From: Turneriella sp.
GTDB lineage: Bacteria; Spirochaetota; Leptospiria; Turneriellales; Turneriellaceae
Assembly (NCBI GenBank): GCA_965279515.1
Contig: CBDIID010000003.1
Coordinates: forward strand, 672,001-736,000
Length of the DNA stretch: 64,000 bases
Direction: 5' to 3'
The position numbers were made by a program. The stretch's first letter is position 1. Each line of letters begins with the position of its first letter. Below are positions 36,001 through 42,000 of this stretch, one piece after another.

Positions 36001-39000
36001 TGCCGACCTTGTGTCCCAAAACACCCTGCGGGTATTTTGCATGGCAATTCTCATAACCCATATCGGCGAGCGCCTCGCTCACATCGGCATAGATCTGCGC
36101 CATCGTCTTCTCTTTGCAGACCCCTGCGAGAATCAGCGGCCGAAAAACGGAGAGATCATCGAGCGCCTTTTCGATCTTTTCATTGCGTCCATGCGCATAG
36201 GCATAACCGACATCGGCCGAGCAGTCATTGAAGATCGGCGCAACATCGAGAATGACGCCCATACCCTCTTCGAGCCGAGTATCGGTCGGCATAAACTTCT
36301 CTCCAAAATGCGGTGGGAGTAATTTCGTCGGGAAATTGCGGGTATCGAAAGGGCGGTCAATCCCCTGGAAGGCGGTGCGCTTGCCGAACCAGGCAAAGGG
36401 CGCGTGGAAATACCGCGTCATGCCGCGCGCCTTGATTTCATCGTCGATCATCTGCGCCGCGTCGCGCTCGCTGTCGCCGGTTTTGAGGTTTTTAGCGACC
36501 GCAACCACGGCTTCATAAGAGAGGCGTTGGCACTCTTTGAAGCTCATGAGGTCAGTGTCGGTATAGAATTCTCGTGACATGGCCTCATATAGCCATACTT
36601 GAACAAAGTGTCAACTTTTATTGAAGGACAGCGCATCAAGTCGACGTCAAAAAATGCGGCGATAGCCGGAAGCCTCGGCGTTTGGTAAACCCCAAACGCC
36701 TGCTAAAGCGGCCGAAACGGCCTGCTTCCGGCTATCAGGGGAGCCGCATTTTCGACCGGGTTATTGCTTGTCGTAGCTGCCAATGCCCCGAATCTGAACC
36801 GATGCAAAGCCTCGAGGCATACCTGTCATTGGGAGTGTTAATCCTCCTTATACTGACATCCGCCTTCTATACCCTCTACCTGCGCTTCTTGCCGCTGCGC
36901 TACGTCTTCTATGGCTTTCGCATCGCGCTGACGGGCCTGGGCCGCGAAGACGAAGGCACAACGATACCGCGTACGCAGCGCTCGGGCGAGATCAATAACC
37001 TGCGCGCGATGTTCCTGGCGGGCAGCATCCAGGCAAATGCCGCCGTATTGTTGGGTATTCCCGTCATTGTACTCTGGGGCGGCGCGCCTTCGCTCGTCTG
37101 GGTTGCACTCTTTGGCATTCTTCTGGCGACGCTGCGTTTTGCCGGCGGCACACTCGCAGTGCGTTACCGTGAAAAACATGATACCGGCTGGTTGGGTGGT
37201 GCGCGTGAAATCGTCGCGTCAACTTTCTGGGGTAACCGCGGCGCCTTAGTCTATACGCTCGTCGCCATCGTCGTCTGCCTCATCTGGGGTGCGGCAGCGC
37301 AGGCAGATCTTTGGCATAACTTCTATGCGACTCCCGAAAAAGTGAAACTGCCGCTGCGTCTCGGCGAACATATTTTCTCGAGCCAGTGGGCGCCGCTCTT
37401 TATGGTGCTGACGGGTTTTATTTTGAGCCTCGGTTCATTGCGCCGCGTCGGCCGCATCGCGGCATTCATCTCGCCCATCGTCACCGGTCTTTTGCTGATA
37501 CTCGCGATCTTTATCATTGCACAAAATTCGGGTAAGGCTGCCGAGTTCATGTCGATGGCATTTTCGCAGGCCCTCAACTTCAAAAGTCTCGCGTCAGGCA
37601 TTGTCGCATCGCTGCTGGTCTTTAAATGCGCGGCGTTTACAGGTATCGTTGCGCCAGAAGAATCGACGGGCATTTCAGGCGCCGTGACCGCAGCATCGAT
37701 CAACGACTATGCGGTGAAGCAGGGTCTGGTTTCGATGTCGACGGCGCTCTTGTACACTACGCTGGTCATTCCCCTGCTCTGCCTTGCCTACGCTGTGGGC
37801 ATGCCCGAAGTCAAGGGTGTCGACGCCGCGATGGGCGGTGTAAAATCGCTGCTCGCGCCTGCGCCTGCCGCGGCGAGTGAAATTATCCGCCAGGTACAGT
37901 TCTCGCTCGCGCATGTATTCTCAGGCGCGCTGGGTCGCGGCGGCTTTTTGATCATCGCACTCTCTGCCTTTGCCCTGGGAGCCATCGCCGCGGGCGTATG
38001 GATTATCATACTCGAAAGATTCCTGCTCTCGATCGGTGCGCGCGCCCTCGTCTGGCCCGGACGCATCGCCTACGTGGCGATTTTCGCGCTCTCGGCGCGC
38101 TTTTCTAATCTCGCTGATAAGGTGCTCATCTCATCGATTCTGTTTTCGCTGATGGCTTTGGTCTTTTTGACGGCACTCATCAGCAAAGTCAAAGAAGTGC
38201 GGCAGGTATCGCGCGAGTATTTTGAACTTTTTCCGCACAAACACGACCTCGGCGTCAAATTCTATGTTCTGCTGCTGACCCTGTTGCCGAAGAACATGGT
38301 TTCTAAGCTCAACGGCTTTCTCGCCGGCCTGCGCCTGCCGCGCTTTATGATGACGCCAATTGTACTGGCGTTTGCGCGTATCTACAAGATCAATATCCAG
38401 GAAGCGGAGCTTGAAATCCGCGACTATGAATCCTTAAATAAGTTTTTCACACGCGCCCTCAAGAACGGCTCACGCCTCATCGACCAGAAAGAAACAGTGA
38501 TTGTTTCACCGGTGGATGGCCGCCTTTTGGTTGCGGGCAGCCTGGAGAAAGGCCAGCTTCTCCAAAGCAAAGGGATGGAATCTTCGCTACAAAACCTGCT
38601 CGGCAATAACCGTTTCTACAAACGTTTCCTCGGCGGTCACTACATGACGATCTATCTTTCGCCGCAGGATTATCACCGTATCCATTCCCCGGTCGAGGGC
38701 CGTATTTTAGGCTACTATTACCAACCAGGCAAACTTTTCCCCGTGAACAATTTGGCCGTGAACTCGATCAACCAGCTGTTCTCCAAGAACGAGCGCCTCA
38801 TTACCTACATCCAGAGCGAGCGCGGCCTTGTCGCGCTCATCAAGGTCGGAGCAACTTCGGTGGGTAAGATCCGCGTCACCTACGACCCCAATATCGCGAC
38901 CAACCGCTGGATACGCCTCGCCAAAGAACACATGTATGACGAAGAGATCCAGATCCGCAAGGGCGCTGAGCTCGGCCGCTTTGAGATGGGTTCAACCGTC

Positions 39001-42000
39001 ATGCTGCTCTTTGAAAAAGACACCGTCGAGCTGCTCGAATTCGAAGAGAAACAGAAAATGATCCTGGGGCAGCCCATTGCACTCTTTACCAATAAACCGC
39101 AGGCAACGAAACCTGCAAAAACAAAATCGGGAGCTAAGAAATGACCATCGGTATTGTCGGCCTCGGCAAAATGGGTTCGGCCCTCGCGCAGGGGCTTTCG
39201 GGTAAATATGAAATTGTCGGCTTTGAAAAAAGTGAAGTCGTGCGCGCCGACCTGCGGCCATCGCTGGTTAAGAAAATACGCATCGCCAACTCGATCGAAG
39301 AACTGCTCGATGTCGCAGGCCCGATCATTCTGGCAGTTAAACCTGCGCAGATCGGCCCCCTCGTTGCGGCTGTGAACGATCACCGCCTCGTCATCAGTAT
39401 CGCGGCGGGCATTGCGCTGAAGACCATTGACGCCGCGCGCAAAGAGAATGGCCCCACGATTCGCGCGATGCCCAACACACCGCTCGTCATCAAGCGCGGC
39501 ATCACCGCCTTTACCGGAAACAAATTCTGCACAGACGAAGACATCCAGACCGCACGCGACATCTTTGAAAATGTCGGTGAAGCCATTCACCTCGACCAGG
39601 AGAAACTAATTCATGCGGTGACCGGGCTTTCGGGCTCGGGGCCGGCGTATGTGTATCTCTTTCTGCAGAACCTCGAAGACGCGGGAGTCCTGCTTGGCCT
39701 CACACGCGCCGACAGCCGCAAACTGGCAATCCAGACGGTATTGGGTTCGACCGAGCTCGCACGCCAGTCACAGATTGCACCGCAGGAACTTGCGCACGAC
39801 GTGACATCCCCCGGCGGCACCACGGCGGTAGCGCTCAAGTCGCTGCACCGCCATGGTTTCCCCAATGCGGTGATGGAAGCGGTGACGGCCGCGACACGCC
39901 GCTCGGTGGAACTCGCCCTCGAAGCACAGGGTAAAACCGAAGCTTCCGCGGATTAAGTGGCCACGACGGCAAAACTCCTCACAGAAGACGAAATCATCGG
40001 GCTCATTGCCCGCCTGAAATGCTCGCGTAAAAATCTTGTTTCGGGCGATGACATTGCACGCTTTGAAACGGGCAAAACCACCTATGCCGGCAGCGATAGC
40101 CTGATCGAAAATGTCCATTACAAAGAAGCCTGGCTCACCCCGGCTGACATTGCCTACAAACTCTTTGCGCGCAACTGGTCGGATTTCCTCTGCAAGGGCA
40201 TCAAGCCGACACAGGCATTACTCAATCTAAACCTGAAACGCGCCAGCGCGCGCTCTGGGTTTATATCCCCCTTTCTGCGCGAACTGGATAAGCTGATGGT
40301 AGAACACCAGATCACGCTGATAGGCGGCGATACCGCGCGCTCGCCGAAGAATGTCTTCACGCTCACCTTTCTCGGCAGTAGCGGCAAGTTTATCCCGAGG
40401 CAGGGTGCCGGCATCCGGCCCGGAGACGTCGTCGTGCAATTGGGGAAAGTTGGCGGAAGCGATCTGGCACGGAAACTAATGGCGCGTAAAAAACCAGTCA
40501 CACCGAGCCTCCGTAGATTATTCACCCGGCCGCAGATTTTCAAGAGCCTGCCGCAGCAGAAATACCTCAAGGCGGCGCTGGACCAGAGCGACTCGGTCGC
40601 TAAAACCCTGCGGATACTGGCGCAGAAAAATGGCGCTATATTGAGCATCGCTATCGATCAAATTGCCGTAGCACACCAAGACATCAGGCGCCCAACGGAT
40701 ATTCTCGCCGCCGCTGAAGACCTCGCTGTCTTTGCGATAGCCGGTAAAAACTCTACCGCTTTCCGCGTCATCGGACATGTGGAATCCATCCGTGGGAAAC
40801 GCCCCGGCGTCGTGTATCGGCACCGCTGTCAGCCGTTCGCGCTAACAGCCGACGGGGGTAAAACTGTTTCCCCACGGACGCATGATTCGACAAAGCTCAT
40901 CACAAGTGCCTTCGAGCACTTTAAGAACTCCTGAAGAGCAAGCCCCGGCAATTTTCCGCGGGCCAACGGTTGTTCTCCACCGTCCCCAGATTCCGCAAAA
41001 CACAGGCAATATCTCGCGCCTCTGTGTCGCCGTGCAGAGCCCATTAATTCTCACCGGTCGCGTGGGTTTCGATTTCGGCGCGGCCGCCGTCAGGCGCGCC
41101 GGCCTCGATCACTGGGATCACCTGAACTTCAGGTATTTCGCCCGCTTCAAAGACTTCTACTTGCAGAACCAAAACCGGCGCCTGATTGCGGTAACCAAAG
41201 TCGCTAAAACCTCCGCGCTCGAATTTGATTTTGCCGAGGGTGATATATTGCTCTTCGGCAATGAAACGATGGGACTACCCCCGTCGCTGCTCAGCCGCCT
41301 CGCCACCCATGTTTATCTGCCGATGTCGGGCGCCGTGCGCAGCCTCAACCTTGCGAACAGCGTGGCTGTCGTGACCTATGCCTACATTCGCCATGTCTAT
41401 GGTAGCGCGGCCGCGCATAGCACTGAAAGCTATCCCCGTACCTACTACAAAGGAAAAATCAAATGAAAACGGGTATCCCTAAAGATCTGCGCGACGCCCT
41501 CGCGCCTGTTGTACAGGATCTGCGCACGGGAAAATTTTCCGGCCCACTGGTACCGGCGATTCTGCCGCTCGCCGCGTACCTGCAGTTTGAGAAGCATGCC
41601 GGGCGCCTCATGTATATCGTGCCCGATGACAACACGGCGCTCGAGATCTACCATGCCTGGAACGCGCTCGGTGCCGATTGCGGCGCGCTGGTTTCCTGGG
41701 GAGTTATTCCCTACAGTTTTGCGGCCGCCGATAAGGAAAAGGAATATTTGCGCACGCATGCGGAATACCTGATCCGTTCGGGGCGCCCCTGCCTCATCAC
41801 GGCTTCGATCGAGGGTTTGACACAATACATCGCGCAGGCCGATGCAACGGCGAATGGCATCATCCTCAAAAGCGGCGACCGCTTTCCGCGCGAGAAGCTG
41901 ACAGGTTTTCTTTCTGCCTCGGGGTACACGTATGCCAATCCGCCGCCCGTCACCAAACCCGGTGAGTTCTGCGTCAAGGGCGGCATCGTCGATATTTTCC

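Follow-up and report, generated by a model that had tools for sequence, protein, structure and literature searches.

A class-wide fusion of phosphatidylserine decarboxylase to an AgcS-family transporter domain that may no longer transport in Turneriella

Several bacterial membrane transporters are tied to phospholipid enzymes by operon structure or fusion. Examples are the DedA protein PetA, encoded in the pssA-petA-psd operon of Bacillus, MprF and DedA-MprF, with DedA or MprF fusions being described (PMC10193950), and LplT, which is paired with the lipid enzyme Aas and fused to it in some bacteria (PMC11416262). These systems have DedA, MFS or MprF folds and lipid substrates, whereas the protein described here, P0001, has an amino-acid symporter fold with no evidence for a lipid path. 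A second group of comparable proteins consists of transporter-derived sensors with a LeuT fold, such as the SLC5-kinase fusions CbrA and CrbS and yeast Ssy1, whose output is transcription or signalling. LysP acting with CadC is similarly a LeuT-fold protein controlling another protein with an output in transcription or signalling. The partner in P0001 differs in being a lipid enzyme within the same chain, and any control of this enzyme is hypothetical.

The closest relatives of P0001 are found in Leptospira, where GenBank already names the protein bifunctional. ABZ94961.1 (Bifunctional phosphatidylserine decarboxylase and sodium/alanine symporter) and an L. interrogans entry (sodium:alanine symporter family/phosphatidylserine decarboxylase) are orthologues with the same architecture and belong to the same decarboxylase (PSD) clade. 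These names are annotation only; in the Leptospira protein the site has been remodelled differently and is without the Na+ triad, and the symporter label is, therefore, doubtful. No published study of the fusion was found in literature searches, and the main text of the L. biflexa genome paper did not contain the words symporter, phosphatidyl or decarboxylase. The joining itself is known from genome annotations.

The window analysed here is a stretch of 64,000 nucleotides from a Turneriella sp. genome. The locus has the following arrangement.

36802..39144, + strand: agcS-psd fusion gene, 780 aa, whose stop overlaps the ATG of proC
36802..38229, + strand: AgcS/APC (LeuT-fold) membrane domain, residues 1-476; its final helix leads on to the PSD
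38230..38247, + strand: joint of six residues linking the last AgcS helix to PSD helix 1 (H463-476 and then H483-494 in the model)
38248..39096, + strand: E. coli-type pyruvoyl-dependent phosphatidylserine decarboxylase proenzyme, residues 483-765 (TIGR00163, phmmer, Foldseek)
39141..40934, + strand: proC and a thiL-like gene 3' of the fusion gene (Pfam), a conserved context used as locus marker

Both Pfam domains were present in one stop-free frame, confirming the survey's finding of an AgcS-family domain joined to a C-terminal PSD: Na_Ala_symp (PF01235) scored 87.1 bits at residues 59-475 (model 8-381 of 392; cut-off 24) and PS_Dcarbxylase (PF02666) 198.3 bits at residues 545-760 (cut-off 22). 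Six-frame searches of the whole genome (completeness 99.99%) detected one match to PF02666 and one to PF01235, both in the P0001 frame; this is, hence, the only PSD gene of the genome, as had been proposed. Contigs from two of four sequencing runs covered the stretch unbroken with zero differences, although these runs may be the source of this DNA, and the ATG had the same position in 10 related Turneriella-group loci. A promoter scan upstream of this ATG reported no site. The downstream gene is called thiL-like on our reading of its AIRS domain. A pssA-like gene was present in the genome (TIGR00473, 94.4 bits in a partial frame; cut-off 107).

The PSD half resembled E. coli Psd throughout. 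It passed the TIGR00163 PS_decarb model (216 bits; cut-off 111.75), did not reach narrower PRK models (PRK03934, 216 against a cut-off of 285), and matched 6L06 and 7CNW by phmmer (E 7e-41 and 1.4e-40) and the E. coli Psd structure by Foldseek (TM-score 0.88 by target length; ∼35% identity). An assignment to the archaetidylserine type was not upheld: the AS_decarb model TIGR00164 scored 34.7 bits against a cut-off of 230, the closest structures were those of E. coli Psd, and "archaetidylserine decarboxylase" is the NCBIfam product label carried by the passing model TIGR00163. The following features are shared with the E. coli enzyme.

38248..38382, + strand: three N-terminal membrane helices of the PSD half, residues 483-527 (structural model; sequence and structure match to E. 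coli Psd)
38515..38685, + strand: D572, D623, H625 and H628, equivalent to E. coli D90, D142, H144 and H147 (alignment to 7CNW)
38989..38997, + strand: G730-S731-T732 self-cleavage site, the E. coli LGST motif (204/204 fused rows; PMC7952604)

The helices were modelled as H483-494, H497-508 and H514-527 with a pLDDT of about 65 to 80 (structural match 7CNZ), and each of the four listed D and H residues was invariant in all 204 fused rows. S731, the equivalent of E. coli S254, would be the future pyruvoyl group, and the conserved residues and fold suggest that the enzyme is active. E. coli Psd is monotopic and standalone, binding the membrane through its three helices unaided and binding its lipid without a helper (PMC7952604), whereas P0001 has a 476-residue polytopic domain in front.

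The best transporter structure match of this N-terminal half (N-half) was Methanococcus maripaludis AgcS, 6CSE (Foldseek E 1.7e-12; TM-score 0.81 by target length; 19% identity); the transporter fold matches listed were LeuT-fold proteins, and Atlas features pointed to PF01235 (0.91). TIGR00835 was not reached (81 against a cut-off of 272.65). No DedA, MFS or MprF flippase domain was detected in P0001, the only Pfam matches at E values up to 0.1 being PF01235 and PF02666. In AgcS, the Na+ ligands are N80, S274 and D308, and mutation of this triad markedly lowers uptake; G77 and T78 of an unwound TM2 bind the substrate carboxylate, which Q170 also contacts, while E276 contacts the amine and, with W370, forms a cytoplasmic plug (bioRxiv 10.1101/293811). 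The equivalent positions of P0001 were compared with those of the 31 Turneriella-group rows.

37024..37047, + strand: TM2 segment, residues 75-82 (AgcS A73-N80, gapless register); G77 replaced by N79, T78 by A80 and N80 by V82
37285..37302, + strand: TM4 pocket, W162 (AgcS I165; W in 30/31 rows) and Q167 (AgcS Q170, kept; 31/31 rows)
37648..37659, + strand: TM7 residues 283-286 (AgcS F273-S274-N275-E276), with the acid alone kept (E286)
37753..37755, + strand: Y318 replacing Na+ ligand D308 (Y in 29/31 rows, D in 0/31)
37999..38001, + strand: W400, equivalent to AgcS W370 (31/31 rows; plug role from bioRxiv 10.1101/293811)

P0001 thus shares with AgcS the fold, the helix register, the cytoplasmic loop motifs and the Q170, E276 and W370 positions (Q in 31/31 rows, E in 28 and D in three, W in 31/31) but differs in having N80, S274, D308, G77, I165, F273 and T366 replaced; S274 was present in none of the 31 rows and is A284 in P0001. 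The AlphaFold model of P0001 had an unbroken TM2 helix (H66-93), while an intact relative modelled with this set of 54 sequences had a break at residues 88-89, and the G77/T78-type unwound TM2 hence appears to be absent from P0001. The transporter domain described by the survey as complete is, therefore, complete in fold but not in its substrate and Na+ site. Intact relatives of the fusion, with 44% identity to AgcS, retain the whole site.

The fusion was not confined to Turneriella and its kin in a narrow sense, as had been suggested, but extended across the class Leptospiria, Leptospira included. It was present in 172 of 185 PSD-bearing genomes, 166 with a long frame (a PSD frame of at least 600 aa) and six with a frame cut by contig ends. 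Both Pfam families were carried by 117 of 120 long PSD proteins among the matches listed (of 179). An unfused PSD was found in 12 genomes of the class, six of them with the gene at the same locus as fused relatives. In other spirochaete classes, all 62 PSDs listed were standalone. A search for PSD fusions outside the class gave two AgcS-like representatives with a PSD half among the 150 listed; one of these resembled Turneriella and the other had the intact type. Adjacent agcS and psd genes, as expected of a pre-fusion state, were not found in the 20 loci examined outside the class. As the PSD gene is nearly always single, the protein on which Leptospira and Turneriella depend for phosphatidylethanolamine (PE) synthesis carries an 11-helix partner.

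Across these lineages, the transporter half looks like a series, functional-looking in some and rebuilt or decaying in others. The Na+ triad was intact in 24 of 25 rows of the order-mates forming the intact clade and in 75 of 104 standalone AgcS proteins but in none of the 31 Turneriella-group, 125 Leptospiraceae (family f9) or 23 family f8 rows. The intact clade is, hence, likely to have a working transporter for Na+ and alanine or glycine, and the sodium/alanine symporter label is probably wrong for the Leptospira and Turneriella groups. The summed side-chain volume of the pocket was 1896 ± 31 cubic angstroms in Turneriella versus 1684 ± 26 in intact relatives; the f9 value of 1678 indicated no net filling. 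In f9, E276 and the changes D308E and A74S were present in 125/125 rows, W370 in 124/125 and T75S and Q170P in 121/125 each, while G77 was replaced by L, V, I or F and T78 often by P. The conserved polar and aromatic set of Turneriella differed from that of f9; f8, in which the site is eroding, retained little of either, and most of the residues common to the three clades were structural glycines or parts of loop motifs found in AgcS proteins generally. Mean conservation of the 13 core columns in Turneriella was 0.91 versus 0.81 for other TM columns (P 0.023). A Na+-based lifestyle was not supported as a reason for site retention: of 14 genomes in which the fusion is intact or nearly so, three had NqrA over the cut-off, and NqrA matches were present in 25 of 42 genomes of the eroded f8.

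The transporter half is under purifying selection, with a dN/dS in Turneriella of about 0.10 (0.104, versus 0.034 for the PSD; 31/78 pairs usable) and values of 0.037 to 0.069 in two Leptospira genera. The ratio of N-half to PSD-half distance was lowest in the intact clade (1.15) and higher in f9 (2.15), f8 (3.18) and the Turneriella group (3.79), as computed before two intact rows left the Turneriella group. The span from residue 455 to residue 494 had a length of 40 residues in 189 of 204 fused rows. Together, this selection and the nearly fixed joint length indicated that the N-half is more than junk. In the N-half tree, fused rows were split from 40 standalone AgcS proteins with a support of 100, and fused PSD halves grouped in the PSD tree (support 98; the 95-row PSD tree was a quick tree). 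Both results favour one origin of the fusion, while a 44-row PSD tree, in which fused rows were not on one side of a branch, is against it.

We consider it somewhat more probable than not, at roughly 55%, that an ancient fusion to a working alanine/glycine symporter has become a plugged, non-transporting membrane platform in Turneriella. P0001 would be an inner-membrane proenzyme whose C-terminal half self-cleaves at G730|S731, generating the pyruvoyl group, and then converts phosphatidylserine to PE at the cytoplasmic leaflet, like E. coli Psd; the topologies of the halves fit, since the AgcS C terminus is cytoplasmic. The N-half would descend from a Na+:alanine/glycine-type symporter that was joined to psd once, in the class ancestor, and that still looks intact in several order-mates. 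In Turneriella, the loss of the Na+ site and the filling of the pocket with bulkier residues suggest that this half most likely no longer transports. It may be kept as a folded platform on which the PSD is held in position with a fixed register and which probably aids its insertion, stability or maturation. Leptospiraceae would have altered the site separately and differently, with one family eroding it and some lineages dropping the domain. A plain membrane anchor is a weak explanation, since the PSD keeps the three helices by which the E. coli enzyme binds the membrane. Against a platform, the conserved rebuilt cores (P 0.023 in Turneriella; E276 and E308 in f9) look more like a new site than inert bulk, and ∼470 residues are a large cost for a PSD with its own membrane helices. 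Against independent changes of the site, Turneriella and Leptospirales rows were on one side of a branch in the N-half tree (support 97), though the Turneriella branch is long (1.44). If the N-half is a platform only, this is a clear case of a fusion retained after its first function was lost. The class forms a rare natural series, which starts from an intact symporter, passes through two sites rebuilt in different ways and ends in erosion and loss, and the route from transporter to pseudo-transporter can, therefore, be asked about directly.

A less probable reading is that amino-acid transport by the N-half has ceased and that its rebuilt site now binds some small cation or amine, whether proton, ion or ethanolamine-like group, and so tunes PSD activity or self-cleavage through a rigid joint. 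This would be most plausible for Leptospiraceae, in which the carboxylate-binding features are gone, the amine-side acid is kept, D308 has become an invariant E, and site invariance holds at a mean N-half identity of 60%. The different conserved set in Turneriella and the fixed joint are also consistent with sensing, as are the whole-chain pTM values of 0.80 for the intact relative and 0.67 for P0001. Core conservation in f9 was, however, only marginal (P 0.053), with many rows being close relatives, and retention of E276 and W370 may be structural because both form the cytoplasmic plug. The two rebuilt sites differ, with little of either in f8, and a separate gene resembling ethanolamine permeases is present in the genome (TIGR00908, 372.4 bits in a partial frame; cut-off 381.75). 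It is comparably doubtful that the symporter was rebuilt twice into a module recognising a decarboxylated amine head group or a proton and sensing or flipping PE, a proposal based on the apparently blocked carboxylate site and two invariant, putatively buried glutamates of Leptospiraceae. If so, a LeuT-fold protein would take part in phospholipid control in all Leptospira, and the series from working symporter to lipid module would still exist in living relatives. Sensing or movement of lipid by a rebuilt site would put the LeuT fold to a new use.

It is improbable that the N-half supplies the PSD with phosphatidylserine or, like PetA beside Bacillus psd, flips PE to the outer leaflet. The pairings of transporters with lipid enzymes described above are precedents, and the fusion has been retained in most PSD-bearing genomes under purifying selection. 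The AgcS site is, however, small and buried within the helix bundle, opens to either face and, in the only member with a solved structure, admits no residue bulkier than alanine (bioRxiv 10.1101/293811); in Turneriella it is more filled still. E. coli Psd binds its own lipid unaided, and the intact-site relatives look like ordinary symporters, indicating that no lipid site was present when the fusion arose. We know of no lipid flippase with a LeuT fold. The genome contains four DedA-domain genes, and no lipid or serine gene was present among the annotated recurring neighbours, which were proC, the thiL-like gene and housekeeping genes specific to one lineage or another (Pfam gave no match for two recurring families); proC and the thiL-like gene adjoin psd in both fused and unfused order-mates. 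The earlier suggestion that the transporter half binds the serine head group and hands phosphatidylserine on is likewise not supported for P0001, given the loss of the Na+ ligands in 31/31 rows, a pocket that is filled rather than widened, a site inside the bundle and the 12 unfused genomes. Loss of these ligands also leaves coupling to ion flow unsupported for P0001.

Slightly more improbable again is an N-half that acts as an independent, perhaps proton-coupled, transporter of some solute, with a changed substrate and as a passenger on the PSD gene. This genome and nearly all f9 genomes have no AgcS match besides this half, the fold is preserved in full, and AGCS members transport other substrates, such as glutamine (PMC12795558). 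Against this, the TM2 break is missing from the P0001 model, the pocket is filled, change was faster in the lineages with an altered site, and three further APC permeases and an SDF transporter are encoded in the genome. Read-through or misassembly of two adjacent genes can be dismissed, given the 166 genomes with long frames in the census, the long PSD proteins carrying both Pfam families, the fixed joint length and the two contigs spanning the gene unchanged.

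The fusion gene occupies a single reading frame in the window.

36802-39144, + strand: agcS-psd fusion gene, one 780-aa frame encoding P0001

Pfam placed Na_Ala_symp at residues 59-475 of P0001 (87.1 bits) and PS_Dcarbxylase at residues 545-760 (198.3 bits). Each of these two families was matched once genome-wide, both times in this frame, in agreement with the survey's finding that this is the only PSD gene. Escherichia coli Psd and Methanococcus maripaludis AgcS were returned for P0001 by sequence search and by fold search alike. The decarboxylase had also been described as being of the archaetidylserine type; the model passed was PS_decarb (TIGR00163), while AS_decarb (TIGR00164) scored only 34.7 versus a cut-off of 230. 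The archaetidylserine label is a matter of nomenclature, and P0001 belongs to the E. coli-type PSD family.

Alignment to E. coli Psd demonstrated that the D90/D142-H144-S254 set and the GST motif, as described in the available text on that enzyme (PMC7952604), are kept in the PSD half of P0001. These positions were invariant in 204/204 distinct fused rows (aligned AgcS-PSD sequences), although only identical sequences had been merged and hence the rows are not independent. The three N-terminal helices, with which E. coli Psd is reported to bind one leaflet (PMC7952604), were kept at residues 483-527 of the predicted model. Judging from these residues, the PSD half of P0001 is probably enzymatically active. 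As the C-terminus of AgcS is reported to be cytoplasmic (bioRxiv 10.1101/293811), the PSD half should lie on the cytoplasmic face. A pssA-like gene is present elsewhere in the genome, indicating, together with the PSD, that the two-step route to phosphatidylethanolamine (PE) is present. PE is the main leptospiral phospholipid.

The fusion had been considered to be confined to Turneriella and its kin, which does not hold in the narrow sense, as the fusion extends across the class Leptospiria and includes Leptospira. A PSD match was detected in 185/190 genomes of the class, and in 166 of these the best match lay within a frame of at least 600 aa. Six more fusions were truncated at the end of a contig; sequence of the AgcS part was observed in five of them (G045, G057, G114, G115 and G157), and G015 was counted on the basis of a 481-aa frame reaching the contig edge with the start of the PSD. 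Twelve genomes had an unfused PSD (G001, G002, G005, G008-G011, G161 and G165-G168). PF01235 was matched in 44 of the 49 long PSD frames tested with Pfam, and the remaining five were recovered by a profile HMM trained on N-halves of fusions from other clades (E 1.4e-4 to 1.1e-20). The long frame of G033 (709 aa) gave no match at E 1e-3. In a sample of the phylum, 62/62 PSDs from other classes among the matches listed lay in frames of 280-431 aa, with 80 further matches beyond those listed. In a large collection, both families were present in 117 of the 120 long PSD proteins listed (of 179), and all of the organisms named among these 120 were spirochaetes. The divergence of the Turneriella N-half, which prevents retrieval of its relatives, explains why the range had been missed; a search with it, run against 1.84 billion representatives, gave six matches with E-values of 1e-10 or lower.

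Several genomes had atypical copies. The N-half of G028 (L163) was broken into frames of 310 and 381 aa, and G021 (L164, one of the 166) had a frameshift within the PSD half and no second PSD match, each due to either a sequencing error or a real break. G183 carried two fusion copies of equal score and frame length on separate contigs, with a similar pair at L034 and L042; the G183 copies may reflect duplication or assembly redundancy.

Phylogenetic analyses were most consistent with one ancient fusion event. Fused N-halves, two contig-cut N-halves and P0014, a 492-aa AgcS without a PSD, split from 40 standalone AgcS proteins with a support of 100, and the stretch spanning the joint was 40 residues long in 189/204 fused rows. 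Fused rows grouped at a support of 98 in 95-row PSD trees, with the unfused PSD of G161 inside the group in one tree and outside in another; in the latter, constraining G161 inside improved the likelihood (p-AU 0.83). In a 44-row PSD tree, the fused rows did not form one side of a branch. The G161 PSD is most simply explained by loss. The psd-proC-thiL order of fused order-mates (other Turneriellales) was kept in the unfused genomes of family f6, and the unfused psd genes of G001 and G002 adjoin the same divergent gene as those of fused Leptospirales. As the unfused PSDs placed in trees (G001, G167 and G168) fell outside the fused clade, loss, in-place replacement and an ancestral state are all possible for f6 and for G001 and G002. 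In 29 fetched Leptospirales loci, with psd either fused or unfused, the gene upstream of psd and in divergent orientation encoded a 328-aa protein without a Pfam match (L098:2192-3175). The PSD protein P0335 (286 aa, from a contig of 91 kb) and the AgcS protein P0014 were each nested among f3 fusions in their own trees, possibly due to fission of the fusion.

In the transporter half, the AgcS substrate and Na+ residues given in the available text of bioRxiv 10.1101/293811 were mapped via an intact relative (M. maripaludis numbering), the register being gapless between flanking anchors at the helices checked, namely TM2, TM7, TM8 and TM9. Four states were distinguished. In the first, found in order-mates of families f1 (subgroups g2-g5), f2, f3, f4, f5 and f7, the site was intact, with 350-438 Pfam bits among 12 scanned and the Na+ triad (N80, S274 and D308) in 24/25 rows. 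The sole exception, the fusion of G170 (L057:3307-5637, L112), lacked N80, and the same genome encodes an additional, standalone AgcS; P0242 had likewise drifted in part, with E276 replaced by Q. These changes in G170 and P0242 may represent early steps of site loss.

The Turneriella group (87-117 Pfam bits) had the triad in 0/31 rows. Replacements were G77 to N, N80 to V, I165 to W, F273 to V, S274 to A and D308 to Y, with retention of Q170, E276 and W370, and the side-chain volume summed over 13 pocket positions was 1896 versus 1684 in the intact state. An AlphaFold2 model of P0001 had an unbroken TM2 at 66-93 (mean pLDDT 80.7, pTM 0.67), while that of an intact relative, built with the same 54 sequences, had a TM2 break and an unwound stretch of TM7 (pLDDT 88.8, pTM 0.80). 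Leptospiraceae (f9; 151-200 bits) had the triad in 0/125 rows, with G77 replaced by L, V, I or F, Q170 by P in 121/125, an invariant E276 and D308E, and a pocket volume unchanged relative to the intact state. In the fourth state, that of f8, the site was eroded and locally below Pfam detection. P0001 is an AgcS homologue by fold that lacks the Na+ site and, in the predicted model, the TM2 break, both of which are present in intact relatives, and hence its classification as a functional AGCS symporter is not warranted.

The Turneriella and Leptospiraceae states probably arose separately, as GTDB assigns Turneriella and intact relatives to a single family, Turneriella is nested among these relatives in PSD trees, the replacements differ between the groups, and an AU test rejected a grouping of Turneriella plus Leptospirales (p 0.030, for a 44-row tree under a simple model and a group picked after inspection of the trees). 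Against this, the N-half tree joined Turneriella and Leptospirales at 97, on long branches. The ratio of the rate of change of the N-half to that of the PSD half was 1.15 in the intact clade and 2.2 to 3.8 in the other groups. The N-half is still under purifying selection; dN/dS was 0.104 in Turneriella (31/78 pairs unsaturated) and 0.069 and 0.037 in two Leptospira genera (10/10 and 67/153 pairs), values that are rough as dS exceeded 1. Conservation of the rebuilt core columns slightly exceeded that of the remaining TM columns (P 0.023 for Turneriella and 0.053 for f9).

The fusion architecture is already on record as annotation: f9 proteins carry the organism name Leptospira, ABZ94961.1 is named 'Bifunctional phosphatidylserine decarboxylase and sodium/alanine symporter' in GenBank, and a comparable name is used for an L. 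interrogans entry. No paper on the fusion was found in the literature searched, in which subscription journals were thinly covered and supplements were outside the scope; the fusion may be listed in transporter surveys or genome tables. The available text of PMC12774342 records a PSD in L. biflexa and nothing further on it, and a term search of the available main text of the L. biflexa genome paper (PMC2229662) gave no mention of the fusion. The class-wide range, the graded series of transporter states and the two different rebuilt sites are new.

We propose that the PSD half would mature and make PE as in E. coli and that the N-half would originally have been a functional Na+ symporter whose substrate was probably alanine or glycine; glutamine is reported to be carried by other AGCS members (PMC12795558). 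In Turneriella, the N-half would now be plugged and serve as a folded platform whose register relative to the PSD is fixed, a reading to which we assign a probability of roughly 0.55. The main rival, a ligand- or ion-sensing N-half, is rather unlikely for P0001 and is strongest for Leptospiraceae, which have lost the carboxylate-binding side and in which two buried acids are invariant. Delivery or flipping of lipid by the N-half has precedents among proteins of other folds (PMC10193950 and PMC11416262, as far as their available text goes) but is improbable and lacks direct support for P0001; four DedA-domain genes are present in the genome. That the P0001 N-half still carries some other solute is similarly improbable.

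Other genes of this genome encode long DedA proteins, namely a 650-aa protein with no other Pfam match (L151:250-2202) and an 835-aa protein with an alpha/beta-hydrolase domain, then a DedA domain and then a weak ATP-grasp match (L153:505-3012); both are possible lipid enzyme-flippase fusions. An ethanolamine-permease-like APC transporter was also observed (L157, C3:445383-446570; TIGR00908, 372.4 bits for a partial frame, cut-off 381.75).

Upstream of the fusion gene, inspection by eye of 36768-36801 detected TTGTCG, 16 bases, GAATCT and 6 bases before the ATG, which lacks a clear Shine-Dalgarno sequence; a promoter scan gave no call for this site. A TTG(T/C)C hexamer was present, again by eye, ∼30 to 40 bases 5′ of the ATG in 10/10 related loci. 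This spacing and the recurrence of the hexamer favour the ATG over an upstream TTG at 36682, and the sequence suggests a leaderless transcript. The stretch that separates the M24 peptidase gene from the fusion gene holds a short repeat bearing inverted arms (36651-36736), which was similar by blastn to 12 further places in the genome (74-97% identity) and looks like a REP-type element.
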